Made by a program: the position numbers and the translations under genes | Notes under the pieces: generated by a model | What the model was told of the DNA's origin: nothing | Seen by the model: only the letters and a program-made list of their open reading frames with translations | The model's database searches: none | Part shown: in pieces, positions 4,549 through 62,413 of the stretch | Layout: the number at the start of each line of letters is the position of its first letter | Position numbering within the stretch: the first letter of the stretch is position 1 | From: Cyanidioschyzon merolae | Taxonomy: Eukaryota | DNA: 64,000 nucleotides | Assembly (NCBI GenBank): GCA_000091205.1 | Contig: AP006496.2 | Direction: 5' to 3' (one strand)

Positions 4549-5263
4549 AGATGGTGGTGAAAACCTTTCTTCTTGGACATATCAAGGATCCGTACAGGGA
4601 AAAGTTGCGAGACGCTATCGAAAAACGTGTTGCGTCATACTCCAAGAATATTATAAAGGCGTCGTCAGGACTGATGCATTTAGCAAGGGAGATGTACGAA
4701 GACGTCGCGAACATGGAAACGGTCGAGATTCCAGACGAGTTTTTCGACAAACCTTTATTCGTCAGCTGATGCTTGGCACAGGGGAAGTGCGGAGGGAAAA
4801 TGAGCGGGTGCGCGCCCTCCACGAAAAATATCCCTTTTACAGCTTCAATGGTACTCGATACAAGGGTGACCGGGGTATTTACGGCTACGGGGCGATGAAG
4901 TACCCCACGAACCTGAAGAACCATTTGACAGAGAACTTCGAACGTTTCATGGTACGCGCCGTGTTTGCGCTGTATCCGGACATCTCTCGCAATGGAAAAT
5001 GGGCGATGATCAACGGCATCACGAGCGATCGCAAGCATGAAGATGAGGTCGAATTTGTCGACAAGAAAGCGCCAAACGAGAACACGAATGAAGCTTCTGT
5101 AATCCGTGCGGTTATACAAGAGCATCGTGCGGTACTGGGGCTGGCGTATCCAACAGACAAGATATCAGCGTTGAAAAAGATAAGGAAAGATACTATCGCC
5201 TCATCCTGCGATATTTCGTGTTTCTGGACCGAGAGCTCGAACGCAAGGCAGAAACGAAGCTAA
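4549..5263 (+). CDS. Element ORF1 (about 240 aa if read from the first ATG across the frameshift; also the ORF-track pieces 4461..4769 and 4769..5263); K/R/E-rich NLS-like N-terminus; function unknown; frameshifted in copy A
   Basis: It is conserved with copy B: ...IKASSGLMHL..., ...GDRGIYGYGAMKYPTNLKN..., ...RNGKWAMINGITSDRKHED.... In copy B the region is a single frame. Copy A has lost one nucleotide near 4752 (A: aaacctttattcg; B: aagaccttttttcgc), which gives the TGA at 4767 and the frame switch. The first in-frame ATG is 4549 (MVVKTFLLG). The tracker start at 4461 is a GTG. Confidence 0.3.
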
Positions 5264-6618
5264 GTGAAGGAAAAAATGAAGAGTGGGAGAGACGGAAGGC
5301 TGCCCTAATGGGGAAGCGCTTCGATGTGGTTCCAGTGTGCAAGATCAAGTCACATTTTGTGACTATCGACTCCGGCGTCCTCTACGGCATCATGAGGGAC
5401 ATCAGTCCGGAGTTCAGTGTCAGCAGGGAGAACTTCACCGGCGAAAACCGGGAGACGTACTTGAAGAACATCTCCAATTTCAAACGTCTGAGAGTGAACA
5501 AGCAAAAGTTGTTCACTGGGATGATCGAAACCGATGGAGTAGCCTTGTGTGTACACTATCGGCGGTTGAAGAAAGATCGGCCAGTTCCGCCCTCGGCTGC
5601 GCCCGTGACGAAGGGTGCAGAAAAGAAAGAGGCGGATCCTGAGACGCAGGAGGTGGAGGATAACGACTTTGTCGTTGAAGTGACGAAGGATGAAGATGAG
5701 AAGGAGGCGGATCCTGCGACACAGAAGGTGCAAGATAACGACCTTGTCGTTGATGCGGCGAAGGATGAAGATGAGAAGGAGGCGGATCCTGAGACGCAGG
5801 AGGTGGAGGATAACGACTTTGTCGTTTGCGCGGACCCTGGGAACACGAATATCATCACCATCGCAGCACCGAAGCGTGCGGAAGATGGTACTGATGGTAA
5901 CGTACGTCAGAAAGACATGCGAGTTTTGAGGATCTCGAGAGCGAGATACTATCGAGAATCGGGAATAATGAATGCGAGGAAGAAAATTGCTACATGGAAT
6001 GCAGGAATGAAGGATCACCTGGAAGCTTTGAGTGAGGTGACTAGCCGAAGAGCGGACTTTCAAGCTTTTCGGAAATTCATGGAAGTTTGCATTGTCCATT
6101 GGGATGCACTGTGGGAGGAGTATACCAAGGCCCGGTGGGCTCGTTTGCGTATGAATTTGTATTGTGGGAAGCAGCGGGGGTTCGCGAATTTATTCAATAA
6201 CTTGAGCGCCTTGAAGGAGGATGAAAATCAGAGGCTCGTCGTAGCATACGGAGCAGGGCGCTGGAAGACCCAAAAAGGGACTACTCCAGCTCCAACGACA
6301 AGAACATACAGGGAGTGCGCACGGCGTTTCGTTACGATACCTGTAGATGAGTTCCGAACGTCCTATGCACACCATGAACTGGGTTGTACACTTCAGAGAG
6401 TCGAGATGGAAAAGTGCCAGAGGAGCGCTGAGGAAATAGCAAAGTACGGACCGCTGACGGAGGCGCAAACGGAAAGGAGTGCGAAAGTTCGTGGACTACT
6501 CGCTTTAGTGAGTATAACTCCGGACGGGAAGAAACGTATGGAGTTTGTGAACCGAGATTTTAATGCCGCAATCAATCTACGGAAATGTGCGGTACTGGAC
6601 AAGAGACCTCCAGAGTAG
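5218..6618 (+). CDS. TnpB-like RuvC nuclease of a eukaryotic OMEGA (Fanzor-type) system, 466 aa
   Basis: Motifs in order along the protein: [15 protein letters not shown] (RuvC-I, Asp ~205); [20 protein letters not shown]...EKC (TS motif plus a degenerate H/C zinc knuckle); [18 protein letters not shown] (RuvC-III, the RDxNAAxNI hallmark of TnpB, Cas12 and Fanzor). The canonical RuvC-II Glu is not obvious; the expected position reads RLVVAYGAG. The start codon is uncertain: the tracker uses a GTG, and the frame stays open further upstream. Confidence 0.7.
5619..5830 (+). repeat. 75-bp (25-aa) acidic tandem repeat x~2.8 inside ORF2
   Basis: The unit gaggcggatcct...gatgaagatgagaag recurs at 5619, 5694 and 5769, encoding [25 protein letters not shown]. 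Copy B has a single unit. Confidence 0.85.
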
Positions 6619-7122: not shown

Positions 7123-9269
7123 GGCTGTTCGGAGAAGGACAACGAGCACTGGGTGGCGTCTTGGATGAAAGTCGGCGAGGATGTGTCTAGTTCAAGGCGA
7201 ATGCGGCCTGTGCTGGGAGCACTAGCTAATTCGTATCGCCTACGCGCGGTTCGCTTGGTAATGAACGCCACGAGATAGCAGCGTGAGGTATGCAGCGCGT
7301 TCGACACCCAACGAGAGTGCTCCGAGTGAGCGCGCGCGACCTCTCGAGCTTGTACTGTGGGCACTTGTCGAATTGATATTCGGAGTGGCACGCCGCCACG
7401 CGCATCACTTGGAGATTACTGGTCCTGTGTGGTGATACGTTTCGCATGCCGCTTTGAGTGTAGCGTGCGCCTGTCGAGCGTCCACCGTTCGTAAGGTGTT
7501 GCGCGAGATAAGAGTCCCGCGCATTCCGCCCGCTAGAGCTTGATTATCCGATGATACATGAACGACTAGCTTGTCGAAACGTTAGCGGTAAAGAAGCGAG
7601 TATCTAGCGTACAAGACGCGTGTAGCTTTTCGCTCCTAAACACTGTACGCAGTAAAGAGCGCACGGCTTGGTGTCAGTCTCGAGCGCATGAACGACCACA
7701 GTGTTCTTCGATGGTTTGTGTAAAACTGGGCCCGCCTGAAAGGACAGCGATCTACGACACGATTAGCATCCGCGGACGCCTGGTCAGAGCGATCGGGATG
7801 CCTGTGGAAACGCGTACTTGCCGACGTTTGCAGGCGCTCACGGGCGGCCTCGGTGGCAGGGGCGAAGATCGAGCCCCTGCATCGATGATGCGTCATGCTT
7901 CTCTGCAGACGATTTAGATGCAGTCAAATGGGACTCGGCATCGAAACTGTCGTTACCTGCTGACTAGGTTGCCACAGCACGTAAGCAAACCTGCCGGCAA
8001 CCCCGGTGTGCGCCTTGCCGCGAGTGCTCACTTTTGAATGACTGCTGCGAGCCTGTGTTCGCTACAGGGCGCGACTACCCAGAGTCGCCCGGCACCAGTG
8101 CGTGTGCTCGTGACGACAGCAGCGCTGAACGCAGGTGATTGAGATTTGCTTACCTACCGGCTCGCTGAGCACATCGATTCACTGGACATGCGCGAACGAA
8201 GAGCTTTTCACGTGAAGCTACCATATCTCCCTGAGCGGATATGGCTTTCTGTCTGGACTGTGCAGAGGCAGCGGCGCCAAGTACGTTGCACTCGGATGCT
8301 CGCACGCTGCTGTTGCAACGCTGCAGGCACGCCAGAACTGCCACTACGGAGATACAGCATGCGATGCGCGGTTCTCGATACGTCCGATGATGACGCAGTT
8401 GTAGGTATCGCCCAGAACACGTGGTGGCTTTCCGAGCTCAGTCCATCGTCATGCTCCAGTGCGCATGGATTATCATGCAGCCGGGAGCCATAAAATGGAG
8501 CGCGAGACTGCGATGAACGCTTGCTACAGTGCTGAATGTGTTGCCACTGTCGCCGCACGGAAACAGCGCAAGTCGTCGTGTCGATGCTGGGGCCCACACG
8601 AAAGGCCGGATCGTAATGCGAGCGAGCGCAGCCCCGCGTTAGATGGTTAAACACATGTCAGACTAGAATGGAACAGGTACACTATCTCGGCTGCGCACTC
8701 TCAAGCCTGGACATGTCGTCAAGGTCATCAATATTAGCCGTCGTGGGCTTTTTCAGCAACAGCTTCCTCTTACCCTCCATAAACTCCGGCATTCAATTCG
8801 CTGGCCTCTTGCGTCCTTCCCGTTTCGTTGTTTGCTGTCGATTGATGCTGATGCCAGCCATACTGTGCCGATATCGCTGCTTCCGTCTGGTGTCAACGTA
8901 TTTCGTGCACAGACGCAAGTTGCGATCCAAATTCGTTTGTCTGTTGCACCCACTATGTCTAGTGCACCGGTGCACCCTGCGCAGCGATGTCCATTGACTG
9001 CAGTCAGATACGCAGATATGTCCACAGCGCCTACTTCTCCAAGTGCCACGCTGGGGCGCGTGAACGCTCGCTTCGTCCATTGGTGCTCGTCGGCGACGTG
9101 TAGAGAGGGCCTAACTGTTTGCGCTTATCTGTTTTCATGCCCAATACCGTACCCTGCGCTCACGGGCCTCTTCGGGGTGTTACCCAAAGCGAACTTGGTG
9201 CACGTCGCACACGCAAGCGATCGCTCTTCCATTCTTTTGAGGATTTGTGGAAATCGATTTTGTTCATAG

Positions 9270-9720
9270 TAGAGAGAGTTTCGGAAGGAAATGCACGCTG
9301 ATCAACAAGATATGAAATTTTGATCCGTCTTCACTTCCTTCGTGCAGAGCGCCGATGCATGATCCACGGGAAGCGATCCCAGCGATGACTAGAGTCCCAG
9401 GCCAAGACCTTTTTCCACGCAAAAAGAAGAAACGGGAGCCACTGGGAAGTTTCCTCCTGAGAGGGATCATATTGGTGCTGTCGAATCCGGCCTCGTCGAT
9501 AGACATGAGCGGAGGCGAATTTGCCTTTGTAACGAAATCGAGTATTGCACTCGAGCAGTTCAGTGAACATTCAGCAGGAGCGCGTGAACAGAACATCAAC
9601 GGACAATGTCGAGCTTTTCCCTTTCGTATTGCTGGCCCCACACCTTGCCTCGAAACGGAAAGATCAGAACCATGAAGAATATGTGATTTGAGAATGCAAA
9701 CTGTAGGAAAACGAGAAGAC
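9270..9720 (-). repeat. R1 dispersed repeat copy (reverse orientation)
   Basis: The reverse complement aligns to the 2.4 kb and 19.4 kb copies, for example ...gcatcggcgctctgcacgaaggaagtgaagacggatcaaaa... against ...gcgtcaccggtttgcacgaagaaagcccagacggttcgcc.... It explains ORF 9264..9641. Confidence 0.45.
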
Positions 9721-17601: not shown

Positions 17602-19299
17602 AGGTCGCTCTGTATTGCTAAAATAGCCGTCCGGAGATTGTGAACCCAATGCGCTTGCACGGGAATTCAGGCCGTGTACTGGAGGACAGTGCGTGGCATC
17701 GCTTGCAAGAGTACATTGCCTCGGCTAGGGCGTCGCTAGCGCCTTGCTGGTGCATGGTACGCACGATCGGTGCAAGTGACGTACATCGGCCGACAGCAAC
17801 GTAGCCCTGAAAGTGCAGTAGTTCGCGCGTCCTGCATATAGAGCGCTAGTCGGGAACCTCTCCTGTTATCGTATCTGGGTAGCGGATCGCTCCATACGCG
17901 TGTTCGTGGAAAGCACCTCTTCGAGATTCAGCGCTTCTTTCTGACAAAGGAGATGAGTCCGTTGCTTGCAATGGATGCCCAATGCTCTATGCGAAAAATT
18001 TGCAGGGATTTGCGTATGCGCGCGCTGGCGACCCATGTCCAGCACACTCCTATGCAAGACGACTTGCGTTCGTGTTTCAGACTAGTCCTGTATCAGGTAC
18101 AAAGGAGCAGCAGCGACAGCACTGCAACGTACTTGCCTCAGCGAACGGTTGTGGTCAGCGCAGAGCCTCAGTAACGACGCAACGAGTAACGATGACGCTA
18201 GTTTCTCGCGGTGGTGATTCGTTTGCTTCAGTACGGGCATACCGTAGCGAGCGGTTCAGTCGTAGTATCTGGTGATCTTCTCGCCAAGGCCCGAACAACT
18301 TCAGTCAAAGCACGTTGACTGTAATCTCTCTGAGCAGCTGCGCTTGCGGCATTCCTCGCGTCCATGGTAGTCTCTCAGTGCGTGCAACGCTTCTGGATTG
18401 CCTGCAACCGATATAACGTAGACGCTCGCGTCCTATCACCCGCCATGACCCAGACGTCTTCATACAAACGGAATCCTATCCTCATCATTGCGCTGCTTGT
18501 GCGGTTCCCGAACGCGGGGTCGTGTATTTTCCAAGTGCTGTTTCCGATGCCACGCTTTGCATGAGCTTGAGTGCCGACGCATTACTGTGTTGCTTCTTCC
18601 TGTCCCGTTAAGCATCGCTCGGGTGAATGCGAGCAGGTGGCTTTTGACCGACGCGTGTGCATATATGCGACGTTTCATGGTATAACGCGGGTCCGTCAGG
18701 TGCGCTGCCTATGCGTCAGCGCGCGTGACAAGTCAGCGCGTACCCGATAGACGATCCAGCTTCACCTGTGCGACATAAAAATGGAACACTGAACTGCTCG
18801 CTCTGTTCAAGCACCTTGATCATTTTTCCGAACTTGCTAAGATATGCGTACGCGGGATGCAAAGCCCAGCAATAGGGGCTTAGGAATGCATACGTAGTTT
18901 CCGGATTCTCGATCAGGGTTTCAAAGTTGAGTCTTCGACGCTTTGCCTTTGGCATTCGATGCGTCATCAGAATGATGATGATTCTCGAAGCACGTGAACA
19001 GGGCTTTGTAAAGTAATCGACATTATTGTCCACTGCATACGTACAAGTATTCAATCTTCTCATGCCCTGATGTGGAACATGCGCAAATCACGATTGCTTC
19101 GAGTTTTCGATTTTTCTGGTTCGAGGCAAGTCGTGGGCGCAGCCATGCGTATCGTTGCATTGACGACGAAAGAAGAAACGTGATGTTGTCCCGTAATGAC
19201 TTGTTCATACGCTCATGTCGAAATTTCATGAAACATGTCACTTCATTCGATGATAGACTTTGTTAGAAATACGAATACTCTAGTCTCTGTGGTCATCGA

Positions 19300-19870
19300 C
19301 GAAACTGCATTCGATACCTGCACAATACTTCTCATGGGATATGCTCCCAGAGGCTCCTATGTCTTCAGAGTGCGCCGAAAATCCGCTTGGGATCGGACTT
19401 ATCCTAGTGACCGCTTCCAGTCGAGAGGGCGTCACCGGTTTGCACGAAGAAAGCCCAGACGGTTCGCCAACCCTCGACTTGATCTCTAGCCCGGATTTTC
19501 ATTCTGGTACATGTTTCACTGTCGATAAAATCTGGTTCCGTCAATGCCTTATGGAATGGGAAAGCACGGGCTCGCGCGTGCGACGGACAGGGTACTCCTC
19601 CGGGGGATCACGCAGACGACGACTATATTCGCAGTACATTGCATCGGGTGCTTCGAGCGAGCAGGGCAAAGATGGAAGACGTCTGTGCCCGTCGAGTGCA
19701 GGTACCGAGCCGTGAAGCAAGTATTGGCGTACCATAGGCCGGACCTTGCAGGAGTCATTGTGATGAACATACGTGAAAACCTGACAACAATCAAGTGTCA
19801 CCTGAACAAGAGGCACACCGAGCTGTTTACAACGACAATGAGCATCGCAAGTGAGGTGTAGATCGAAACG
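19300..19870 (+). repeat. R1 dispersed repeat copy
   Basis: It aligns to the 2.35-2.96 kb copy along its full length (for example cgaaactgcattcgatacc; gacttgatctctagcccggattttc; ccttatggaatgggaaagc; aagtgtcacctgaacaag). It accounts for ORFs 19341..19715 and 19544..19861. Confidence 0.5.
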
Positions 19871-25608: not shown

Positions 25609-27049
25609 CCTCGCTCTTGTCGAAGAACGCAGCAGACGCGCTGGTACACACCGGGTGCCCCTGAGAGCACCTACGCCTTCAAGCGGTTACACGAAGTAAG
25701 CCAGGAGTGTGTTCGTCGGGAAAAACGCACAGACATCTGCACTGCACCCAGGTTGTCTGAGAGGTACCTGGTTGCTGCGTAGCGCCCTTTCCACAGTCAC
25801 AAGAGCGGCTTGCCGCCTGCCGTCGCGACCAGCCATAGCGGGATAGGTGGCTGCTCAGATGCATCGGTGCCGTTTCCCTGCTCGAAACAGGATCGATAAC
25901 CAGAGAAGCGACTAGCGTTCGTTCGTGATCCCTTTCGCATTCCAATAGCTCCAGACCGGTTTTAGGCCTTGCGATAGAGCTTTGATCGATCCGGCGACTT
26001 TTTCTTGTTGCCAGTCTTCTGAGGATGCTCGTGGCGGTGCTGGATGTATCGTTGCCCAAGTTGCTGTAGAGAGCGCGCACGCGCGGGTACGTGGTACCTC
26101 TAGGGGCATCGATTCGAGATGCGCTGGTGATGCCCTCGATCAGCTGTGTTTCCCTCTTGGGAAGTGCATTTGTAAAGTTGGCCGGATTCCAACGCGTTCC
26201 ACGGGCTCCTGCGTCGCGATCAAAGTGCCGTAGATACGTTGAACCTCAGCAGTAGCAATGATAACAACACGCTGCATTCGAAGAGGTGAGCAACGCACCC
26301 AGGTTTTGGATGCGCAGCACAAGTGCTCGTTCCGATTCCATGGTATCGGGGCTTTGACGAAAGCTATCCCTTGGAACAAAGAGTCTTGACCCGGCGATGC
26401 CGAGATACATCCTCATTTGTCTGTGACGCAGTCCTGAAACCTTACTGGTATTCGCTGCCACCGGTTACCTACAGGCAGCGTTTGGCACTAGCAGACGCAG
26501 CCGCGGATGCACCCACCCTGCAAATATGATCTTTTTTTGACTGGCAGAACGTTTATAGGAACTGGGTGTCCGATTGTGCGATGTGGATCGGCAGCACAGA
26601 TGCAAACATCGTAGAGAGCGGCGACTTGGACGAGGCGCACTCTTCGACGAACGGTGAACAGGTGCGTGCAACAGCCATCTCACTACACTGTAAGAAAGAA
26701 ACGCACCAGGTGGAGTAACTTGGATGTAAAGAATAATGTATGGGTCTCTTTCCAAAGTCGTGAACAGCAGCCTGTTCGGAATTTTCGTGCGACTGTTTCG
26801 CTTTCCGGTCTGCGATATCCGATTTTTACTACGGGGTCTCTCCTTTCCTTCCAGCTCTGTTGCTCGCAGTCAAAGAATACTGATTTCAGCGTTAGGGTCC
26901 CGACTTCACTGCTTCGAGGTGTGGTCGACGCATATTGTCCCCAGTCGGAAGCTTCAATCTAAGCTTCAGCTGCCGTTTCGGTCCTCTGCCGTAGACAGCG
27001 ACGGTGCGCTCTTCGCATCGATAACCCTTGACTGTGCTTAGGGGTTGTT

Positions 27050-27340
27050 GTTCGTGCACCGCAACCACTCTTTCGACGGGGTCACCCTGGAGAATCCCGT
27101 GATCGTGGAATACTGTACCATGTGCGAAACGAAGCATGGCATCGAGACGAGCCTTGTGTACCCATCAACCGCATGCACCGAGCGATGCAGCAAGCGTTCA
27201 GGCGTCATAGACCGGACCTCGGACGCCGAGAAGCGGTGAACATACCCGACAATCTGACCATAGTCAAGTGTCACCGAGGCAAAATGCGCACCGATCAGTC
27301 TACAAATAAGATAAGAATGGCAAGCGAAGCGCACATTCCA
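27050..27340 (+). repeat. Partial (3' half) R1 dispersed repeat copy
   Basis: It aligns to the 3' halves of the other copies (aatcccgtgatcg; gcatcgagacgagcc; caagcgttcaggcg; catagtcaagtgtcaccgaggc). It explains ORF 27122..27466. Confidence 0.4.
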
Positions 27341-49565: not shown

Positions 49566-50750
49566 TCAGGCTTTTTTCACCTTACCGCCTCGCAGCGTCT
49601 TCACCTGGGAGTAAATGGCAACTCCAGCGAGTGCGATGACAGTCCCAATGATGTTCTGTCGTGAAACGGGATTTCGGAAAAAGAGCACGGAGCTCACAAT
49701 AACCGCGACACGTTTCACGGTGTTTCCGATCGAATGCGTCACCGGCGAGACGCGCTGCAAGACCACATAGGAGAACTGGTTGTAGAGGTAATGCAGGAGT
49801 CCACAGAGCGCAAGCATCCCTAGCAATGAAAGACCTCCAATGGACGCATTCGCAGCACTCCACACACCTGCATACTTCGTGTAATCGACGACTATGGCTA
49901 ATGGGATAGCTGTAATCGCAGCTAAGCAGGATATCCAGCCGAAAAGGTTGACGTCATCGAACTCCACGCCTTTCATGAATTTTTTGCTTAGGACGTTGCG
50001 GGACTGGAAGGACACGTTGCTCGCAACTGCAGTAAGAAAACCGGGCCAGTTGAAGCTGACTTCGCTCACGGAGGCGAGAACAACACCGAATACAATTGGA
50101 ACCAGCGATGCATAGATTGGCCAGGAGAAGGTAGTACCGGGAAGAAAAATTTTCGCCAGAACCACGGAGAAGAAAGGTTCGCTTGCCTTGATGACATGGG
50201 TGAAACTAACCGCCATTTGTCGCAGGGAGAAGTTCGTGAAGAGGTTTCCAAAGAGATGCGCTAATGCCAGCGGATAGATTTTCCGCAAGTCGGCGGGTGT
50301 CGCGCGTTGAAACCGATGCATGCGCGTGCCCCACAGAAAAAGCGAAATAGTTGCCCCGGCGAGCATTTGTACGGCGGTGACACTCACGAAGAGCGGGAAT
50401 GACTTCATCAGCGTCTTGTTGACGATGTTAAAACCAATGTTTGCAGCATACCAACAGGCGATGTATGCTCCTAGGGCCAGACGGCGCCCAAGTGAGGCGC
50501 TGAGATCAGTCGGCGCACTCGTGCCGCTCGCCGCTGGCTCTGATGCCGTCATCTGCAGCGTTGCGGGCGAGCAATGCTGAGTATGACGTTCAATCACGTG
50601 GGTCTTGGTCTTTCCAGGAAAAAGACTACAGCGCTTGTACTGAATCGACTGCCAGCGCCTCGTGCTCGCTGGTGCCGTGTTCGAGCGAAAGGCTGCACCC
50701 GATAGCCGCCAGCACGGCGCAGGCGACGTCATCACAAATGCTGGCTCCAT
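49566..50750 (-). CDS. Plastidic phosphate translocator family protein (TPT/PPT/GPT-like, DMT superfamily), 394 aa with an N-terminal presequence
   Basis: LGAYIACWYAANIGFNIVNKTLMKSFPLFVSVTAV...HVIKASEPFFSVVLAKIFLPG...NVSFQSRNVLSKKFMKG. The KASEPFF and NV.F..RNV..KK motifs are characteristic of the plastid triose-phosphate and PEP translocators. About 90 aa of S/T/A/R-rich leader precede the first transmembrane helix. Confidence 0.8.
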   Translation of the reverse strand: MEPAFVMTSPAPCWRLSGAAFRSNTAPASTRRWQSIQYKRCSLFPGKTKTHVIERHTQHCSPATLQMTASEPAASGTSAPTDLSASLGRRLALGAYIACWYAANIGFNIVNKTLMKSFPLFVSVTAVQMLAGATISLFLWGTRMHRFQRATPADLRKIYPLALAHLFGNLFTNFSLRQMAVSFTHVIKASEPFFSVVLAKIFLPGTTFSWPIYASLVPIVFGVVLASVSEVSFNWPGFLTAVASNVSFQSRNVLSKKFMKGVEFDDVNLFGWISCLAAITAIPLAIVVDYTKYAGVWSAANASIGGLSLLGMLALCGLLHYLYNQFSYVVLQRVSPVTHSIGNTVKRVAVIVSSVLFFRNPVSRQNIIGTVIALAGVAIYSQVKTLRGGKVKKA

Positions 50751-51659: not shown

Positions 51660-52856
51660 GCACCCATATCAGACGAAACGGGAAGGCCTACAAACAGATG
51701 ACTCGAGCGTCCGTTCAAAAGTTCGGGTCTATTGCCAATGCCATCCAACATGGGCCTCCGCGTGCCTTTGAGCTGCCTGCTGTTTTCGCTCTCTCTTACC
51801 TTCGGATTTACATGCGCCTGTCGCTCATGAACCTCTCCCAGCTGCGATGTCAGCCGTCGACAGATGTCGACGGGAGCGTTCAAGTCCCGACTGCGCCGTT
51901 CCCGGCAGTTGTCGACGCATTTCGTGCACGAGCGGAAGTTGCAATGCACAACCCGTCTGCCGTTTTTCATCCTCTCTGTACTCGGACGCAGACTGCCCGT
52001 CACCACGATGACATTTGATCGCACTCAGGTGTTTTCGCAGGTTAAGAACACGTGCCTCTCTGAACGCCGCTCTGTGGCGCGTGAACGCTTGCCTCAGTGC
52101 TCGGTAGACGCCCTTGGCGGGTGCAGGAGGCTCCACTCGATGCACTCTTCCATATCCCCGCCCAGTGCCGTACATCTGAATCACGGGCTTGTTCTGGGCG
52201 GTGCCTTTGGTATCTACGTTGTTCGCTGTATGTGCACGCGCACGGTGCTCGCTCCAATAAAGGACTTGCGGGACGCCTTCTTGCCCATATGAAACAAGTG
52301 CCAGAGGGAAGTCCGGCCAGACGAAGAATTCGCGGCGGTGCGATTCGCCCACGCGCGCGTCTTGCACAGCGCTGACGCGTTCTCCAGTGGAGGCGCTCGC
52401 TGCGATAACTAGGGTCCGAGTCCAGTACACGGTGCTGTGTAGGCACAGGAGCCGCGATGCTCTGTGAGCGTACTCCCTGAGAGGCAACATGCTGCTGCTG
52501 AATGCCGCTGGGTCGATGGCCACGAACCAAAGAGCATCTGCCTTCGGAACCAGGTCAATGATCTCCGGCGACAAGCACAGTGAGCTTTAGGCATCGTGCT
52601 GTGAGCAAGATGTCGAAAGCAGACTTTGAGCGTTTCTCGGCGTCCATAAAGCAGCGCAGGCCTCTGCGCCAACGTGTTGCCTTGAAACAGAAATGCAGGA
52701 TAGCTGACGCATATGTGATTTGAGCATTCTGCACATAAGGAAAGGAGAAGTGTGCAGGCGTGAATGTAGGTATTGGATCATGGTATTGGTTTTGCTACAA
52801 ACCGCTGTCCCATGATGTCGCGAGTCGCCTAGAGTCCGGTGAGCCACCGAATACCA
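51660..52856 (-). repeat. Inverted-repeat arm 1 (~1.2 kb; contains an R1-family copy and a 249-aa ORF reading outward)
   Basis: Its reverse complement is ~99% identical to 55988-57192. The ORFs 51825..52574(-) and 56279..57028(+) are the same 249 aa apart from 3 substitutions. Boundaries were set where identity is lost: at ...ataccaa|t on the inner side and after ...SSDMG on the outer side. Confidence 0.85.
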
Positions 52857-53756
52857 ATTTCAAACAAAAAAAAACACGCGAAGAAGCTACTCCTAAAACA
52901 CGACCGAGACTCCCGGAATTCTGCATGCATCTGCAGGCCCTCCATACTGCACTTTAAATACCAATGCGGTGCACCCAAGAAATGTTAAGAAAAAATCGAA
53001 AGGCAGGAACAGATCGAGCAGATCAGTGTTCTATCCATATCTGAAACGGGTGTCGCGCATACGCTGCGTGCGATGGGCTCGGCACCGGCGAAGCGTCTCG
53101 TCGCCCGTCTCAGACAACAGCTTTTGAGACAACATTGTACCAGGGCGCACCGCCAGCTGCTAGAACGCATCCGCATCGATCATCGCCTGCGCCGCGCTCC
53201 GCGGGCGCTTCACACCGGGCAGCGTCGCAGGCCGTCGACACCACCTCTTTTCTGAGACAAAAAGGACACAGATCCATCGACCGGCGATCGCCGCATGGCT
53301 TCGCCAGCCGGCATGCCTGCATGGTGGCGCTCAGCGCGTTTTCCGCAGCCGCACCCGGACGCTGCGCCGTTCAGATTGAGACGATTTGAATCCGGGTCTG
53401 CGCGCGCGGCAGTTCGTGCGCGCGCACCCTCCTCAGAGCGCGCAAACGTGTTGTTTGGTGTCTTTGACCCAGAGGCTAACCTAACGAGGTTTCCGCAAGG
53501 CGTCTACGTACGTACTAGATAGAAACTTTCAAGGACGACTTTACCGCCTTGATATCTTAGTGGATTCAGCGCATAGAACAAGTGTTTCTCTCTCGAACCG
53601 AGGAGTCGCGCCACCGAAACCTGACGAGTCCGTTATCCGGTTCGCGCCGCCACGTTTTACCCGCTGCTTAGCTCAGGTCGGCAAAACACCAGGGAACTGA
53701 AGTGAAGTTCATAGTTTTCACTGTTTCGTGAGTATTTTAATTGGAAAGGTCATCAA

Positions 53757-54038
53757 ATGGTTGGTAATAATACGGAAGCAGGAATGGCGAAGTTTCTGGA
53801 GTTAAAGGCAGCTTTCGAGGACGTGTATGAGGACACGACAAAGTTTTTCGAGAAAGGGAACAAGGCCGCAGCCGTTCGTGCTCGTAAGAAGCTTTTAAGG
53901 TTGCGAGAAATTGCACAAGAAATGCGTGTTCTCATTCAGCAGACGAAGGCGCAGCTAGAGCAGGAGCACAAAACCGCTCGAACCAGCGGCGGGGGTGGCG
54001 GTTTGGGCGCAGACAACCAAGTGTCCATGGGAGAGTGA
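53757..54038 (+). CDS. Small protein (93 aa, or 84 aa from the second ATG at 53784) with an Hc1-like (chlamydial histone-H1-like) N-terminal motif
   Basis: MAKFLELKAAFEDVYEDTTKFFEKGNKAAAVRARKKLLRLREIAQEMRVLIQQTKAQ against my recollection of Chlamydia Hc1 MALKDTAKKMTDLLESIQQNLLKAEKGNKAAAQRVRTESIKLEKIAKVYRKESIKAE. The EKGNKAAAxRxR core is shared, and the distance from the start is the same. There is an AT-rich tract directly upstream. It has no K/A-rich tail; it ends in a Gly run. Confidence 0.4.
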   Translation: MVGNNTEAGMAKFLELKAAFEDVYEDTTKFFEKGNKAAAVRARKKLLRLREIAQEMRVLIQQTKAQLEQEHKTARTSGGGGGLGADNQVSMGE

Positions 54039-55987
54039 GCTTTCCTTCACCGGAGCGCTGCTAAGCCACGATGGCTTTTTCGTGCTGTATTTGTTGAATC
54101 GGTAAGCGTTCAGGCTCTTGAGGTCCGCGCCCTTGAACTATTTGCTCCTGTATGACCGCAACTCGTACTGGTTTTGTTTTCTGGACATCGTCCTGAGCCT
54201 TCCCACGGTTCGTCGCCTGTTTCGGCCGCCACAGCTGATACTTTGCAGGCCACGTGCAGGGTCTCCAGAGGCAGGCCGAAGTTTTCTCCGTACGCGGAGG
54301 GTTCGTGGCGGATCGATGAGTCCGTCAGGTTTCTCTAATTCCGAAACTATGCATAGAATCGACGTTCTCTGTGATGAAAGATAGTTTGAGCCAAAGATAT
54401 TGCAGCAACGAATTGTGAGCCGCTTGCATCGGACTCAACGTGACTAGCAGCCGTACCAGAGGAAGTAAAGATCCCGAATGGTTCCTAAATAGTTCTCTCG
54501 TGTCATGGTTGGAACTCCCGGTCAAATGAATGGTCAGGGGATTTTCTGGAATGTGTTCCACGACGAATACTGGGGCTCGTTTTGATTGTATTCCATTTTG
54601 CGGCCTGAGGGTTTCCGAATGAAGGGTTTCCAATTCTGATTAATTTATGCTGCGAAGATCGGACACTCTTGCTGATAGAAGCTGCTGACGCCCGTAAGGA
54701 ATGCCCCACACGAGAGCAAACTTGCCAACGGCTCTTCGATACCAGCACGCTCTTCGTTAGAGCGAAGCCGTTCACCCTAGAGCCACAGGTGCGTCGAGAG
54801 GACTTAGAGTTCCCGGTTAGTTTTGGACGTGCCTGTTACTCGTTGTTTTGGCCGCCAGTCGTGTCGGATAAGGCGACTCGACCTGACACGGAGCGGGCTC
54901 TTGACATATAAAAGAAGAGGCGGCGCGGCAAGGGATCCAACGGGAAGCAGGGAGGGAACGTGTCCGTCTGTTCCATCACGGACCTGATCAGTGATCCTGC
55001 AGCTAAGTCTTTCGATTGGGGAGGGTCTGCACCAATGTATACCTTTGAACAGAGGGATCCAGAGCGATCGAGGCCGTTCGCCTCGCACAAGGCACGAGGC
55101 GTCGTTTACAGAGCGACGCCCCTTTCATGAGGCGTACCCGGCGTGCTCGCTGCTGCCTTACCGAGCGGAACGTTATCCCTGGCGTCTGATGAGAACACTT
55201 TCCCGCTATATTCTACAGAACCGCTTTCGGCTCCTGGGCTCAAGACAGCTCTTGTCCTCTACATCCAGCGCGTTGCAGCGCATGAATCTACAGTGAGTCT
55301 GCTGCATATCCTGCACGTTTGCGAACCAAGCTGAGCACAGCTCGTGCACTCCTATGCAAAAATGGCTACTCTTTTGATCTTCAGCATGTTGCAGCATTCG
55401 AATCGGAACAGCGACCCGTTACCGAACATGTCTCCAGTTTTTGGACGTCGCTGCGGAAAGGAAATGCACCAGCCGATGATGCAGAGTGTACAGATCCGTA
55501 TCATCCTGATGGTGACGCTGCTGGCTTGGATTCGTTCAAACTATCGGGACACTGGGTCGGAGCCTCGCTATCACTTTAAATGCAATCCGCGTGAGCCTCG
55601 AGTGTACCTGTTGATGGAGGAATTTCGAATCTTTGGAAACTGGAGCGCTTGGTGCCCACGGCGCTGCATTTACCCCACTCGTCCCGTGGAGAGAAGCTCG
55701 CTCTGACTTCTATCCTGGTTGTCCAACTGGTGCATTCTATAGCCGGATCGGGCCATGGACGAACGATTGGGCATTCAGCGACCGCCTGAGACACGTCGCA
55801 TCTACGTACTGTACTTGCGTGCGATGAAAATGGAACACTGATCTGCTCGCTCTGTTCCTGTCTTTCTATTTTTGCTATACTTTTTTAGACTTGCAACCTC
55901 GGCATTTGAAGTGCAGCAATACGCGCAGACGAAGTCAGACGTCGTTTCAGTATCGTCGGCAGTATTTTTGGAATGCCTCCCTCGGCA

Positions 55988-57192
55988 CTCTGGCGCTGGT
56001 ATTCGGTGGCTCACCGGACTCTAGGCGACTCGCGACATCATGGGACAGCGGTTTGTAGCAAAACCAATACCATGATCCAATACCTACATTCACGCCTGCA
56101 CACTTCTCCTTTCCTTATGTGCAGAATGCTCAAATCACATATGCGTCAGCTATCCTGCATTTCTGTTTCAAGGCAACACGTTGGCGCAGAGGCCTGCGCT
56201 GCTTTATGGACGCCGAGAAACGCTCAAAGTCTGCTTTCGACATCTTGCTCACAGCACGATGCCTAAAGCTCACTGTGCTTGTCACCTGAGATCATTGACC
56301 TGGTTCCGAAGGCAGATGCTCTTTGGTTCGTGGCCATCGACCCAGCGGCATTCAACAGCAGCATGTCGCCTGTCAGGGAGTACGCTCACAGAGCATCGCG
56401 GCTCCTGTGCCTACACAGCACCGTGTACTGGACTCGGACCCTAGTTATCGCAGCGAGCGCCTCCACTGGAGAACGCGTCAGCGCTGTGCAAGACGCGCGC
56501 GTGGGCGAATCGCACCGCCGCGAATTCTTCGTCTGGCCGGACTTCCCTCTGGCACTTGTTTCATATGGGCAAGAAGGCGTCCCGCAAGTCCTTTATTGGA
56601 GCGAGCACCGTGCGCGTGCACATACAGCGAACAACGTAGATACCAAAGGCACCGCCCAGAACAAGCCCGTGATTCAGATGTACGGCACTGGGCGGGGATA
56701 TGGAAGAGTGCATCGAGTGGAGCCTCCTGCACCCGCCAAGGGCGTCTACCGAGCACTGAGGCAAGCGTTCACGCGCCACAGAGCGGCGTTCAGAGAGGCA
56801 CGTGTTCTTAACCTGCGAAAACACCTGAGTGCGATCAAATGTCATCGTGGTGACGGGCAGTCTGCGTCCGAGTACAGAGAGGATGAAAAACGGCAGACGG
56901 GTTGTGCATTGCAACTTCCGCTCGTGCACGAAATGCGTCGACAACTGCCGGGAACGGCGCAGTCGGGACTTGAACGCTCCCGTCGACATCTGTCGACGGC
57001 TGACATCGCAGCTGGGAGAGGTTCATGAGCGACAGGCGCATGTAAATCCGAAGGTAAGAGAGAGCGAAAACAGCAGGCAGCTCAAAGGCACGCGGAGGCC
57101 CATGTTGGAAGGCATTGGCAATAGACCCGAACTTTTGAACGGACGCTCGAGTCATCTGTTTGTAGGCCTTCCCGTTTCGTCTGATATGGGTG
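55988..57192 (+). repeat. Inverted-repeat arm 2
   Basis: See arm 1. Its outer end lies 44 bp from an in-frame ATG (57236) upstream of the SHMT conserved start. Confidence 0.85.
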
Positions 57193-57454
57193 TAGGTATG
57201 CAACGCATCCGCGTGCTTGCGAACGTGCGTCGATTATGTACATAACTGGACACTACTGGCCACTTGCTCTGATCGTCGCCGCGGGGAGCTGGCGCACGGC
57301 CTCGGGGCCTGCCCTCGGCACCGGCCCCGCAGCCGATGCCGGTACGCGCCGTGGGCCGTGCCAATCCAGAATCGTATCCACGACACTAGTGCTTACGATT
57401 CGGTGTGAAGCACAGTTTTCGCAAGCCACAGTTGTTCACTTTTGCGCTATCAAC

Positions 57455-58852
57455 ATGGTTAACTCTGTGTATAGAGAGTGCTATGATGACAGTCACTATC
57501 GACCGGAGTTTGAGGGGTTCATTGGGAACCGTCCTCTGGAAGAAGTAGATCCCGAGGTTGTGACGCTCATCCGGGCCGAGAAACAACGTCAGGCCGGCGG
57601 TTTGGAACTGATAGCCTCCGAGAACTTTACCTCAAGGGCCGTTATGGAAGCACTTGGATCATGTTTCACAAATAAATACTCGGAAGGGTATCCTGGAAAG
57701 CGATACTATGGTGGCACGGAGGTTGTTGATGAATTGGAGCGCCTGGTGCAGCAACGTGCGCTGAGCCTCTTTGGGCTCGACCCACAAGAGTGGGCGGTTA
57801 ATGTCCAACCGTACTCTGGGTCGCCGGCCAACTTTGCAGTGTACACCGCGTTACTAAAGCCGCATGATCGAATCATGGGCCTGGGGTTACCCTCGGGTGG
57901 GCACTTGACGCACGGCTTTTACACTGCGAAAGGAAAGCGGATCTCCGCAACCTCGATATACTTCGAGTCCCTTCCGTACCAGGTCCATCCTCAGACAGGT
58001 TATGTTGACTACGATCGTCTAGAAGAGCTGGCACTGCTGTACCGCCCTCGACTCATTATCTGTGGGGCGTCGGCGTACGCACGCGACTGGGACTATGCGC
58101 GGATGCGCGAGATCGCCGACAAGGCCGGCGCGATGCTCATGTGCGACATGGCGCACTACTCGGGTCTCGTCGCTGCAGGGGAGCTCACTTCGCCGTTTCC
58201 GTTCTGCGATGTTGTAACGACAACTACGCACAAGTCGCTGCGCGGGCCAAGACAGGGCATGATTTTCTGTCGCCGTCAGTACGAAGCGGATATAAATGAG
58301 GCGGTCTTCCCGGGGTGTCAGGGAGGCCCTCACAATGCAACAATGGCAGCGCTTGGTGTTGCTTTGAAAGAAGCGATGACGCCTGAGTTTCGCGCCTATC
58401 AGCAGCAGGTTCGCGCAAATGCGAAAGCACTCGCCGGGGCATTGCAGGCCCGGGGCTATACAATCGTCACCGGTGGTACGGATAACCACCTAGTGCTTTG
58501 GGACCTGAGGCCAGAGGGCCTCACGGGTAACAAAGTTCAGAAGCTCTGCGATCAAATCAACATAACCCTGAATATGAACGCGGTTCCTGGTGATACGAAC
58601 GCACTCTCTCCTGGCGGCGTGCGTCTAGGCACGCCTGCGCTCACTAGCCGTGGTTTCAGGGAAAAGGACTTTGAGCAGGTGGCTGAGTTTCTCCACCAGG
58701 CCGTCCAACTTTGTCTCAAAATCCAAAAGGATTCCGGAAAGAAGCTTGCAGATTTCGAGCGTGCCCTTGAAGGTCGTCCTGAGCTCGCAACGCTGCGCGA
58801 CCAAGTGCGGGCCTTTGCCTTGCGGTTTCCAATGCCCGGCGGGCCGCGTTAA
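57455..58852 (+). CDS. SHMT: Serine hydroxymethyltransferase, 466 aa from MVNSV (539 aa if read from the ATG at 57236)
   Basis: [70 protein letters not shown]...[10 protein letters not shown]...[18 protein letters not shown] is canonical SHMT, including the PLP-Lys segment [10 protein letters not shown]. The extension from 57236 is hydrophobic, then S/T/R/A-rich ([12 protein letters not shown]...[21 protein letters not shown]), and could be a targeting presequence. Confidence 0.9.
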
Positions 58853-60046: not shown

Positions 60047-62413
60047 CTATCGCAGCCCCGTGCTCGCGTCATCCTGCACGGCCGCGTATGGTGAACGCGG
60101 CACTGGCACGAATACTTTTTCGAGAAAGCGGCGAAATCGCCGCGCATACGAGCTCGGTTCGATAACACTAATGCTATCGTGAAGACAGAGTAGGTGCGCT
60201 TTCCCGAAATGTTCGAGTTTCTTTTCTGCATTATATCGATCGAGGACGTCGATAATACCGAAAAAGAGCCGCGCCTCCTCCCCGTTCTCCAGCAAACCGA
60301 CCCAACTGTTTGCATGTCGGGCGTCCCGTTCGCGCAGACGGCGCCATGATTCTGCTGAAACCGGCAAGTTTGCCGATGTGTCCACGTACTGCAAGCCGAG
60401 CAGAAAAGAGTAATCCATGATATGAACGCTTTCCAGGAACAGGCAATCCATATCGATTTGGTTGAGCATTCTGCGTCTCAGTCGTCGGTCAATAGCGATA
60501 GGACCCACACCGTCTCGAAACAGGTCTAGGTCCTTTCGGGGTTGTCTTGGATCCAACTCCTGGGACGCTCTGCAGAGAAGGCTTGGTCGAAACCGCTGCT
60601 GCGGGGCCGTCTGCTGCTCGTCGTCGTTTGAGAGAACATGCGACGCCGGAGTCCGTGAAAACCTGCCATGCGTACTGCCTTTGAGATCATAGCGCAAATG
60701 AATTGGTGTTCGGGTTGGCAGGAAATTGCTCATGACGACCATACGGATGCGACGCCGCCGCAATCCAAGACGGTGGGTCGTTACACGATGCAGGCCGAAA
60801 AAGCGCGTGATGAGAGATTCCGGATTCTTCATCATGTGAAAGTAGTACTGGGGAAGAATGCTGAGCAGGACACTGGCTTCCTGCTTGGACAGTGTCTTCA
60901 GAATGAAACGGTCATCGCTGCTGTAGTAGAAGAGCGAGCCGCTCTTTCCGGCAGTGGTCGCCTCCCTGAGGGCCTCCTCGCCGCACAGCGAGCGCAGATA
61001 CGATGTAGGACTAATCCCATAACGCTGCCTCAATTGGCGGAATACCATCGGGGCATAGTCTTTGAAAGTGAAGCACTTCTCGATGGGGGGCGTGTCTGAT
61101 GAGCCCACTGCCGGAAAGCGGATCGTGTTGCTGGTCCGAAAATCAGCCATGCAGAGGTTCCGCGGCGCCAACGCGTTCTGTCGCTCCACCGTGTAGCGTA
61201 TTCCAGCTTTGATCTGCATCATCAAATGATAAGAGCGATGACCCTTGTAGATGACCTCGCCGTGGCGGATTTGGAAATTGCCGCGCCTGGTGAATGGATG
61301 CAGTAGGTTGTAGGTGCCAATGACACCGGCTGAATGGCACGATCCAGTTGCTGACGCATGGCCAACCGGTTGGAGCGCGCCCCGTGCAGACCCCGGAAGC
61401 GGCGACTTGGGCGGCATCGCCGGCAGCGCATCAATGTACAGGTGCACGGCGGGTTCCACAACGAGCGGCGGCAACGGTGGCGGCAGCACCGTATGGGATC
61501 CGCGTCTCACGTCGCGTCGGCGGTGTGTACTTCGCGCATCGGCATGCACAGCGGCATAGGCGCCATGCTCGAAACTGCCGTCCCCGAGGCCTGCAGCACC
61601 TACAATGGTGGCCGGCCTGGATTCGGAAAAAGGCACCGAGGCGAATCCGTTCACAGAAAGTTGCTGCCCACTGCTAGCACTCGAAGATGATTGTGGTTCA
61701 ATGGATGAGCTATGCGCGGTACCCATAGCGTGCTCGGCGCGCATGACGCGCGAGGTAGCGCTTGTCGAGACGCTCAGGGGCGCTACTTCCAGGGTACCCG
61801 ATTGCTGTGAATACGTGCTATTGGTCGTTCCGGAGTGTACAGAGTTATTTTCGGCGTTCGTCAACAAGACTAGCCTTGACTTTGTTGGTTCGGCGTTCTC
61901 TTCGGTAGCTGCAACAGTGACCTGAAGCGGTGGCGGTCGTCGAAGTCGTCTACCAAGCGACATTCGCACTTCAGTTCTGCTTTCCGCACGTTTGCGTGCG
62001 TCCGAGTCGTCTGTTGCGTCGTCGAGTGTTGTGCCAGCGCTACCGCTACCACTGCGGTCGCTGCCGCCCTGTTCCATTGTTCCCTGCTTTTCGGGTGTGT
62101 CCGAGGCAGGCGCTGCGCAAGCGCTGGACACCAAAAGAGAACCAGCAACTGCAGGCGCAACGGCCGCTTTCTGTAAGCTTTCTGCTGCCTCAACGGTAGC
62201 TAGATAGCTTCCCGCATCATTAGACAACGAGCTGTTGTTTTTGGGGTCGGTGAAATGGACCTCCTCAGTGTTGTTGGCGTCCTCAGCGGCAGCGCCCAGC
62301 TCGGTCGTCAGTGTTCGCGCCATAGACACATGCTGCTCCTTCTCTTTGCCAGATGTTCGGGACAATCTAGAGGTTTCAGTATGAGTATCCTCCAGAGAAA
62401 GAGCGACGCCCAT
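60047..62413 (-). CDS. PIP5K: Phosphatidylinositol 4-phosphate 5-kinase (PIPK domain), 788 aa
   Basis: Kinase core SGSLFYYSSDDRFILKTLSKQEASVLLSILPQYYFHMMKNPESLITRFFGLHRV...IMDYSFLLGLQY...GIIDVLDRYNAEKKLEH. The N-terminus MGVALS fits an N-myristoylation pattern. The N-terminal half is long and S/A-rich and low in complexity. Confidence 0.85.
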   Translation of the reverse strand: MGVALSLEDTHTETSRLSRTSGKEKEQHVSMARTLTTELGAAAEDANNTEEVHFTDPKNNSSLSNDAGSYLATVEAAESLQKAAVAPAVAGSLLVSSACAAPASDTPEKQGTMEQGGSDRSGSGSAGTTLDDATDDSDARKRAESRTEVRMSLGRRLRRPPPLQVTVAATEENAEPTKSRLVLLTNAENNSVHSGTTNSTYSQQSGTLEVAPLSVSTSATSRVMRAEHAMGTAHSSSIEPQSSSSASSGQQLSVNGFASVPFSESRPATIVGAAGLGDGSFEHGAYAAVHADARSTHRRRDVRRGSHTVLPPPLPPLVVEPAVHLYIDALPAMPPKSPLPGSARGALQPVGHASATGSCHSAGVIGTYNLLHPFTRRGNFQIRHGEVIYKGHRSYHLMMQIKAGIRYTVERQNALAPRNLCMADFRTSNTIRFPAVGSSDTPPIEKCFTFKDYAPMVFRQLRQRYGISPTSYLRSLCGEEALREATTAGKSGSLFYYSSDDRFILKTLSKQEASVLLSILPQYYFHMMKNPESLITRFFGLHRVTTHRLGLRRRRIRMVVMSNFLPTRTPIHLRYDLKGSTHGRFSRTPASHVLSNDDEQQTAPQQRFRPSLLCRASQELDPRQPRKDLDLFRDGVGPIAIDRRLRRRMLNQIDMDCLFLESVHIMDYSFLLGLQYVDTSANLPVSAESWRRLRERDARHANSWVGLLENGEEARLFFGIIDVLDRYNAEKKLEHFGKAHLLCLHDSISVIEPSSYARRFRRFLEKVFVPVPRSPYAAVQDDASTGLR

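Follow-up and report, generated by a model that had tools for sequence, protein, structure and literature searches.

A nuclear gene of the red alga Cyanidioschyzon merolae encodes a tail-less Hc1-family (PF07432) protein

A 64,000-nucleotide stretch of Cyanidioschyzon merolae DNA (contig AP006496.2 of assembly GCA_000091205.1; hereafter the window) contains a small open reading frame at positions 53757–54038 of the plus strand, located between the arms of a long inverted repeat. The reading frame yields a protein of 93 residues when translated from M1 and of 84 residues when translated from M10, both start choices of the initial annotation (84–93 aa) being therefore present. The product (93 aa, computed mass 10.2 kDa, computed pI 9.05) is 100% identical to the C. 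merolae 10D protein BAM81398.1 (XP_005537434.1; UniProt M1VJD1). BAM81398.1 sits on a record of 852,727 bp and chromosome 14 of C. merolae measures 852,727 bp (PMC1955436): the reading frame is a nuclear gene of chromosome 14. From the gene order and from the top C. merolae match given in a Cyanidium caldarium transcriptome table, we infer that this gene is CMN330C. The locus is organized as follows:

49566–50750, minus strand: triose-phosphate/phosphate translocator gene (TPT), CMN328C (Pfam TPT, E = 6e-93), syntenic neighbour of the Hc1 gene in three Cyanidiophyceae
51661–52856: left arm of the inverted repeat, carrying a 249-aa reading frame (51825–52574, minus strand) that belongs to a family dispersed in C. 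merolae
53712–53714, plus strand: in-frame TAG stop codon, read from the sequence, 45 nt upstream of the ATG
53757–54038, plus strand: CMN330C coding sequence (100% identical database protein)
55997–57192: right arm of the inverted repeat, carrying the mirror reading frame (56279–57028, plus strand)
57236–58852, plus strand: serine hydroxymethyltransferase gene (SHMT), CMN332C (Pfam SHMT, E = 1.9e-182), in synteny with Cyanidiococcus
60047–62413, minus strand: PIP5K gene, CMN333C, a flanking gene

The CMN330C product is named "hypothetical protein, conserved" at NCBI and, automatically, "Histone H1" at UniProt; the automatic NCBI naming of the family is also "Histone H1". Its true start is probably M1 rather than M10, as residues 1–9 (MxGNNxEAG) are kept in Cyanidium caldarium, in which residue 10 is Ile and not Met. 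The TAG codon at 53712–53714 makes an N-terminal extension impossible without an intron. Only 9 residues are thus left before the conserved domain described below, in agreement with the initial annotation, which had noted that the protein has no organelle-targeting extension. Searches of the 64-kb window with core and linker histones (tblastn) revealed no histone gene, and CMN330C therefore lies outside the chromosome-14 histone cluster, which is located elsewhere on the chromosome and includes a separately annotated linker histone H1 (PMC1955436). No RNA family was found in the window with Rfam.

The arms of the inverted repeat (51661–52856 and 55997–57192) are 1196 nt long, present 6 mismatches and enclose a spacer of 3140 nt, confirming that the reading frame is within an inverted-repeat spacer. 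Both 249-aa arm reading frames point away from the spacer and have gene-like codon statistics; the arm and spacer reading frames matched no Pfam family at E ≤ 0.01 and bear no transposase or recombinase domain. Paralogues of the arm reading frame sharing 25–39% amino-acid identity are present in the window at 2330–3000, 8815–9554, 19247–19801, 26847–27316 and 6157–6330. An interspersed repeat family of 253 copies is known in the C. merolae genome (PMC1955436), to which the arm reading frame may belong. No second copy of CMN330C was found in the window. In Cyanidiococcus yangmingshanensis, the genes are found in the order TPT (minus), Hc1 (plus), SHMT (plus) and PIP5K (minus), with shorter intergenic regions and without the inverted repeat. 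In Cyanidium caldarium, the Hc1 gene (plus) is directly upstream of TPT (plus), again without the repeat. As the same order exists in Cyanidiococcus in absence of the repeat, the gene is resident and the repeat arose later around it. Judged from these comparisons, the two arms are copies of a dispersed repeat that were gained later, specifically in C. merolae, and that bracket the gene by chance.

In environmental contigs of C. merolae-like strains, the spacer occurs in both orientations with respect to its flanks: three contigs (L001–L003) have the orientation of the window and two (L004 and L006) have the spacer flipped. The sequence of a further contig, L005, forms a perfect palindrome whose centre is the GC-rich palindrome at positions 53396–53447. 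Arms of at least 1.2 kb are sufficient for short-read assemblers alone to yield such flipped or palindromic forms. A true flip-flop inversion of the 3.1-kb spacer is possible.

Comparison with the C. yangmingshanensis gene revealed no amino-acid change over codons 1–76 despite saturation at synonymous positions, with differences at 40 of about 50.5 such sites. The two coding sequences are 82% identical at the DNA level, and the alignment between the two loci is limited to coding regions. These data indicate that CMN330C is a real gene under extreme purifying selection. Codon usage, which the initial annotation proposed to compare with that of the neighbouring genes, proved native: GC3 is 0.57 (neighbours, 0.60–0.62) and the codon-adaptation index, calculated with the other genes of the window as reference, is 0.74 (neighbours, 0.74–0.79; the other two frames of the same stretch, 0.65–0.67). 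Expression was documented for the Cyanidium caldarium gene g1185, whose top C. merolae match in the transcriptome table is CMN330C: 302–329 TPM in diploid cells and 536–550 TPM in haploid cells, within the range of H2A.Z in this species. The order of the table, POR (g1184), g1185, TPT (g1186), g1187 and L37a (g1188), is that of locus L087 (adh_short, Hc1, TPT, EnY2 and L37ae). For C. merolae, a statement in a ribosome-profiling study gives 4695 nuclear genes measured and 28 undetected (PMC11808204).

The protein is composed of a single recognizable domain followed by a short tail. Its features are encoded as follows:

53760–53855, plus strand: predicted helix 1, residues 2–33 (AlphaFold2); the part within the domain, residues 10–33, is acidic (pI 4.7)
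53784–53948, plus strand: Hc1 domain (PF07432), residues 10–64 (E = 2.8e-15, 56.3 bits)
53850–53888, plus strand: core motif EKGNKAAAVRARK, residues 32–44, from the alignments and BLASTP to chlamydial Hc1; the turn of the hairpin (G34-N35) and the start of helix 2 lie within it
53862–53987, plus strand: predicted helix 2, residues 36–77 (AlphaFold2); residues 36–66 are strongly basic (pI 11.8)
53988–54035, plus strand: Gly-rich, slightly acidic tail, residues 78–93, predicted to be disordered from pLDDT and composition, variable among orthologues

The Pfam Hc1 model matched the protein with 56.3 bits (cut-off 23.5; E = 2.8e-15), residues 10–64 aligning to model positions 1–55 of 57. The Hc1-type motif reported in the initial annotation is hence confirmed by HMMER against the family model, and this value, far beyond chance, rules out a generic K/A-rich coiled coil. 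The PF07432 core, K-x(3)-K-G-N-K-A-A-x-x-R-x-R, is present at residues 29–43 (KFFEKGNKAAAVRAR) and sits at the junction between the two helices. BLASTP against chlamydial Hc1 gave 26 bits, limited to the core region: EKGNKAAAVRARKKLLRLREIAQ of CMN330C aligned with EKGNKAAAQRVRTESIKLEKIAK of P0242 (a C. trachomatis-type Hc1, residues 25–47), with 13 identities out of 23 positions. The C. trachomatis Hc1 sequence used as query is 98% identical to the database protein P0242. The core EKGNKAAAxRxRK, which had been described as common to both proteins, is shared as EKGNKAAAxRxR, the final K being a T in Hc1; as had also been stated, the motif is about equally far from the N-terminus in the two proteins. 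In an alignment of 78 sequences, five columns are invariant (N35, R41, R43, R57 and Q61), the first three within the core motif and found in Chlamydiota as well. The nearly invariant residues include D26, K29 and K44, and the set of invariant or nearly invariant positions is largely polar or charged.

Downstream of the domain, residues 67–93 include 2 K/R and 4 D/E, and the protein therefore has no lysine/alanine-rich tail, as previously noted. In PMC2848022 (citing Pedersen 1996 and Remacha 1996) and PMC3469542, the N-terminus of Hc1 is assigned to dimerisation and its lysine-rich C-terminus to DNA binding. At the sequence level, the part of Hc1 matched by CMN330C corresponds to the N-terminal dimerisation module, the DNA-binding tail being absent. 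The idea of a bacterial nucleoid-protein module is hence retained in part: an Hc1-family module is present in a eukaryotic nuclear gene, but only the N-terminal dimerisation domain is common to the two proteins. The NCBIfam HctA equivalog model (NF051889) gave 18.5 bits for a cut-off of 100, and no match to the Pfam Linker_histone model was found in the protein even at E ≤ 10.

Homologues were searched by phmmer against 1.84 billion representatives, which returned 136 matches at E ≤ 1e-3, and with a profile against 5.8 billion proteins, which returned 310 matches. The named eukaryotic homologues all belong to the red lineage: Cyanidiococcus, Cyanidium, Galdieria partita (59 aa), Gracilariopsis chorda and Agarophyton chilense, as well as the nucleomorph-encoded proteins of Cryptomonas paramecium (CPARA_2gp302), C. 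curvata (CcurKRNrm2_p149) and Cryptomonas sp. Green algae, plants and glaucophytes were absent among the named eukaryotic matches of the profile search. The survey of related species that had been recommended thus places CMN330C homologues across Rhodophyta and in Cryptomonas nucleomorphs. Among bacteria, the named matches of the profile search come from Balneolaceae and other Bacteroidetes; they are 58 aa long and bear the name "histone H1". A scan of prokaryotes (one genome per species) with the pattern NKAA[GA][VT]RAR, which is biased to this Bacteroidota-type subtype, retrieved 80 loci that with few exceptions belong to Balneolaceae, Rhodothermales or Salinibacter. The neighbourhoods of these 80 loci present family-level synteny only (kinase-like, deaminase-like, MFS and bPH_2 genes), which gives no functional hint. 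In IMG/VR, relatives were confirmed on at least 94 viral stretches; most of the 80 viral loci that were kept encode 58–61 aa (median 60, five above 80 aa), the local GC content is about 28–40% among the best matches, and some of the contigs reach 200–430 kb. PF07432 has been reported in one published jumbo-phage lineage.

The stand-alone proteins of about 58 aa from Balneolaceae, Rhodothermales, Salinibacter and phage contigs are the closest known counterparts of CMN330C. They align over the full length of the domain with 44–53% identity (26 identities over 55 positions and 54 bits for a Balneolaceae 58-aa protein), share with CMN330C the pattern KF[FY]xKGNKAAGxRARKxLQxLKxLAQExRxxIQ and are likewise devoid of a Lys/Ala-rich tail; they are labelled "histone H1" in databases and are uncharacterised. 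However, CMN330C differs from them by its conserved 9-residue N-terminal extension, by its Gly-rich, slightly acidic tail of 27 aa, and by being a eukaryotic nuclear gene. In a trimmed domain alignment of 63 columns, the mean identity to the Bacteroidota-type proteins is 47% for the red algal and 44% for the nucleomorph proteins, versus 26% and 25% respectively to Chlamydiota. By neighbour-joining, Chlamydiota split from the group of eukaryotic and Bacteroidota-type sequences in 500 of 500 bootstraps; the eukaryotes were monophyletic in 155 of 500, a weak value, and more than one transfer into eukaryotes, e.g., separately into Galdieria, is possible. The tails follow the same division. Those of the matches to the chlamydial Hc1 query that fit the domain model, many of them unnamed, are net-basic and K/A-rich in 77 cases out of 77, a Lys/Ala-rich tail is lacking at all 80 Bacteroidota loci, and the tails of the eukaryotic homologues are neutral, acidic or Q/G/P-rich. 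A few Bacteroidota-type bacterial members carry short K/A/S-rich tails, so that the tail is an accessory attached to a shared module.

Taken together, these comparisons assign CMN330C to a tail-less PF07432 subtype that is clearly apart, in sequence, from chlamydial Hc1/HctA. The latter has the same family domain and the same hairpin-tip motif, and its dimerising N-terminal module is, by homology, the one found in CMN330C, but CMN330C has no known developmental regulation or sRNA control. A specifically chlamydial nucleoid-condensing module, as initially suggested, is contradicted by the low identity to Chlamydiota, by the complete bootstrap split and by the HctA score. The distribution of homologues indicates that the gene already existed early in the evolution of red algae; an ancient origin from bacteria or phages is plausible, and any such transfer would be old. 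Within this known family, CMN330C represents a eukaryotic member without the tail, and its domain match is already precomputed in public databases; we found no description in the literature of Hc1-domain/PF07432 proteins in red algae or nucleomorphs.

The cryptomonad copies lie in a conserved context. The order importin-beta (minus), Tic110 (plus), Hc1 (plus), rpl6 (minus), NOG1 (minus), CAF1 (minus) and eIF1A (plus) is common to chromosome 2 of the C. paramecium nucleomorph and to a second cryptophyte contig, both with a GC content of 25–28%. The Cryptomonas nucleomorph reading frames resemble CMN330C by their Hc1 domain (about 51% identity), the absence of a presequence and their non-basic tails; they differ by longer tails (70–100 aa, conserved within Cryptomonas), AT-rich genomes and their neighbours Tic110 and rpl6. 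No residue precedes the domain in the nucleomorph and bacterial versions. A bPH_2 gene is adjacent at bacterial loci and on one nucleomorph contig; as the comparison gave E ≥ 0.5, i.e., no specific sequence relationship, this adjacency is probably a coincidence. The nucleomorph bPH_2 protein carries an N-terminal extension, unlike its Hc1 neighbour. The nucleomorph copies presumably descend from the gene of the red-algal endosymbiont. Nucleomorphs hold a few hundred genes, mostly housekeeping, and the retention of the gene in such genomes speaks for a function in a core process. No linker-histone genes were reported in a survey of nucleomorph histones (PMC4822330).

The AlphaFold2 model of the monomer, obtained with the 78-sequence alignment, is an antiparallel two-helix hairpin consisting of a helix at residues 2–33, the turn G34-N35 and a helix at residues 36–77. 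The mean pLDDT is 84, with 97–99 over residues 10–60; it decreases in the tail to block means of 47–51 over residues 81–93, the segment below 50 being residues 79–85. Sequence searches for relatives of solved structure, queried either with the protein alone or with a profile of 26 sequences, returned nothing significant, and structure searches with the hairpin model retrieved generic helical hairpins only. The Hc1 domain has 13 K/R versus 8 D/E, that is a net charge of about +5. In the model, residue i of helix 1 would face roughly residue 69−i of helix 2, pairing D26 with R43, E25 with K44, and D22/E21 with R48; with acidic residues facing basic ones in this manner, much of the basic charge would be internally compensated. 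The conservation of N35, R41, R43, R57 and Q61 suggests that these residues are structural caps and salt bridges or, alternatively, that they form a binding surface for an acidic partner, possibly nucleic acid. The conserved polar and charged residues could thus denote a specific ligand site, e.g., for nucleic acid, rather than mere dimerisation.

We favour, with a probability of roughly 75%, the interpretation that CMN330C is a vertically inherited nuclear gene encoding a tail-less Hc1-type, non-organellar helical-hairpin protein that self-associates. The protein consists of one Hc1-type domain (acidic helix 1, invariant turn GNKAA and basic helix 2) and a short, non-basic tail predicted to be disordered. 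As there is no room for a presequence and as the nucleomorph homologues start at the domain, it is expected to stay outside the plastid and the mitochondrion, in the cytosol or nucleus of C. merolae and in the periplastidial compartment or nucleomorph of cryptomonads; a nuclear rather than organellar location is plausible. By analogy with the homologous N-terminal domain of Hc1, the hairpin would self-associate, and the dimer or oligomer would expose basic surfaces of helix 2 to which an acidic partner, be it a nucleic acid or a protein, could bind. Condensation of DNA in the manner of Hc1 would be excluded, the lysine-rich DNA-binding tail being missing. A weak or cooperative association with nucleic acid is a tentative proposal that we consider rather doubtful; once this proposal and the compaction role discussed below are set aside, the rest of our expectation goes to a protein–protein adaptor.

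The main alternative is that CMN330C is a histone-H1-like compaction protein, condensing DNA as chlamydial Hc1 does and perhaps taking the part of a linker histone in nucleomorphs and in the nucleus of red algae. Several observations go in this direction: membership of the Hc1 family, the basic helix 2 (pI 11.8) and the overall pI of 9.05, the invariant Arg and Asn residues at the tip of the hairpin, the retention of the gene in nucleomorphs, where linker histone genes were not found (PMC4822330), an expression level in the range of H2A.Z in Cyanidium, and the automatic names "Histone H1". However, (i) the DNA-binding lysine-rich C-terminus of Hc1 is absent, the tail being slightly acidic and those of the nucleomorph proteins about neutral, (ii) acidic helix 1 is predicted to face basic helix 2, in a domain whose modelled net charge is only about +5, (iii) the HctA equivalog score is 18.5 bits versus a cut-off of 100, (iv) the winged-helix linker-histone domain is absent and (v) the histone cluster of C. 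merolae contains a separate gene annotated as H1 (PMC1955436). With the eukaryotic linker histone H1, CMN330C has in common only the database name and a modestly basic pI: it is predicted to be a helical hairpin and not a winged helix, and it has no Lys-rich tail. We therefore consider compaction to be improbable. A related and slightly less probable proposal is that the protein is a red-lineage architectural factor of chromatin or nucleic acid, acquired once from a Bacteroidota-like bacterium or a phage before red-algal diversification, indispensable enough to survive nucleomorph reduction, and which may replace the missing linker histone.

The other alternatives concern the origin of the gene and the location of its product, and we regard each of them as far less credible than compaction. 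That a chlamydial gene was donated to the ancestor of Archaeplastida might be proposed because Hc1 was defined in Chlamydia, because the core EKGNKAAAxRxR is in common and because a chlamydial input into algal gene sets has been suggested (PMC4154389); yet the identity to Chlamydiota is about 25% versus 44–47% to the Bacteroidota-type proteins, Chlamydiota stand apart in every bootstrap replicate, the basic tails of all 77 matches to the Hc1 query are not found in the red-algal proteins, and the named eukaryotic matches are only from the red lineage, so that we judge this origin very unlikely. Equally unlikely is a plastid or mitochondrial nucleoid-associated factor: the bacterial ancestry and the basic domain would fit, some plastid proteins are nucleomorph-encoded and Tic110 adjoins Hc1 in nucleomorphs, but the in-frame stop codon lies 45 nt upstream, 9 residues precede the domain, and the nucleomorph homologues start at the domain without room for a transit peptide, whereas the adjoining bPH_2 protein has an extension. 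The least probable explanation, to which we give hardly any credence, is that CMN330C travels with a mobile or invertible element or was recently acquired by horizontal transfer. The near-perfect flanking inverted repeats, the arm reading frame from a dispersed multi-copy family within the window, the opposite orientation of the spacer in some metagenome contigs and the frequency of the Hc1 domain on viral contigs are features that such an element might have. Nevertheless, the same TPT/SHMT/PIP5K site exists without the repeat in Cyanidiococcus, the linkage to TPT is kept in Cyanidium, the arm and spacer reading frames bear no transposase- or recombinase-like domain, and no second copy is present in the window; the cargo hypothesis of the initial annotation is thus not sustained. 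A recent date for the horizontal transfer put forward there is contradicted by the homologues present throughout red algae and in Cryptomonas nucleomorphs, by the native codon usage and by the extreme purifying selection.

With regard to annotation, the UniProt name "Histone H1" is misleading for CMN330C, which has neither the linker-histone fold nor the DNA-binding tail, and which, from its sequence, would carry the self-association module of Hc1 only. The gene also provides a counter-example to supposed chlamydial donations to algae, the name of its family pointing to Chlamydia and its sequence affinities to Bacteroidota and phages. C. merolae is a minimal eukaryote with about 4,800 genes and is genetically tractable. 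CMN330C is among its small, very strongly constrained and, judged from the Cyanidium orthologue, well-expressed genes without an assigned function, and retention in nucleomorphs marks it as probably important for a core process. The tractability of C. merolae offers a route to the function of the 58-aa "histone H1" mini-proteins that are widespread in bacteria and phages, and the red-algal protein would be of even greater interest if it proved to be a chromatin factor substituting for H1 in nucleomorphs.

Measured against the TPT and SHMT genes on either side, the 3.1-kb spacer that carries CMN330C, the Hc1-domain gene (window 52857-55996), runs one way in some metagenome contigs of C. merolae-like strains and the opposite way in others: three contigs (L001-L003) have the orientation of the window, and two (L004 and L006) have it flipped. 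At the left spacer border of L001 and L004, the reverse complement of 55830-55959 replaces window 52857-52987, and the repeat arms are therefore longer in those strains. Either the spacer truly undergoes flip-flop inversion, or short-read assembly has produced the two orientations artefactually. An imperfect GC-rich palindrome (GTCTGCGCGCGCGGCAGTTCGTGCGCGCGCAC...) is also present at 53396-53447, ~310-360 nt upstream of CMN330C. A further metagenome contig of 7.3 kb, L005, forms a perfect palindrome with its centre exactly at 53416 and holds two mirrored copies of CMN330C. A hairpin artefact of the assembly is the likeliest explanation, although the palindrome could also point to a site that is fragile or folds back.

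Each inverted-repeat arm carries an ORF of 249 aa, with gene-like codon statistics and no Pfam domain. Diverged paralogues (25-39% aa identity, E 1e-14 to 1e-2) are found at at least five further sites in the 64-kb window. The ORF is possibly part of an interspersed repetitive element that has been reported for C. merolae in 253 copies and bears a truncated WSV486-like ORF (PMC1955436). Two genes downstream of CMN330C lies PIP5K (CMN333C), which is reported to have fewer ribosome footprints than any other nuclear gene of C. merolae (PMC11808204). These features are located as follows:

51825-52574, minus strand: 249-aa ORF, one arm
56279-57028, plus strand: 249-aa ORF, other arm
2330-3000, 6157-6330, 8815-9554, 19247-19801 and 26847-27316: paralogous copies of the 249-aa ORF
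60047-62413, minus strand: PIP5K (CMN333C)

In cryptophyte nucleomorphs, the Hc1-domain ORF is conserved and syntenic, with Tic110 on one side and rpl6 on the other (L089, Cryptomonas paramecium nucleomorph chromosome 2, CP002173.1; and L091). It is labelled 'hypothetical' in databases and 'histone H1' in newer records. According to a published survey, linker-histone genes are missing from nucleomorphs (PMC4822330), so this ORF has apparently escaped notice. In one nucleomorph contig (L091), a bPH_2 (PF03703) gene (8528-9034, minus strand) adjoins the Hc1-domain gene. Likewise, 23-24 of the 80 Balneolaceae loci have bPH_2 genes immediately downstream of their Hc1-like gene, ~230-900 nt past the match; the encoded proteins are 160 aa and about 500 aa long. 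Comparison of the nucleomorph and Balneolaceae bPH_2 proteins revealed no specific similarity (E>=0.5). Because the nucleomorph protein has an N-terminal extension and its gene is absent from the non-photosynthetic C. paramecium, the shared adjacency is probably a coincidence.

Outside the Cyanidiophyceae, the closest homologue of the CMN330C protein (P0013, 61% identity) is encoded on a eukaryotic contig of 44% GC from SRR23274491 (L092), with these features:

4353-5018, minus strand: L092 feature
8001-8321, plus strand: L092 feature

Here too, the Hc1-domain gene has a fragment of a TPT-family gene ~3 kb away, which hints that the TPT-Hc1 linkage is old in red algae.
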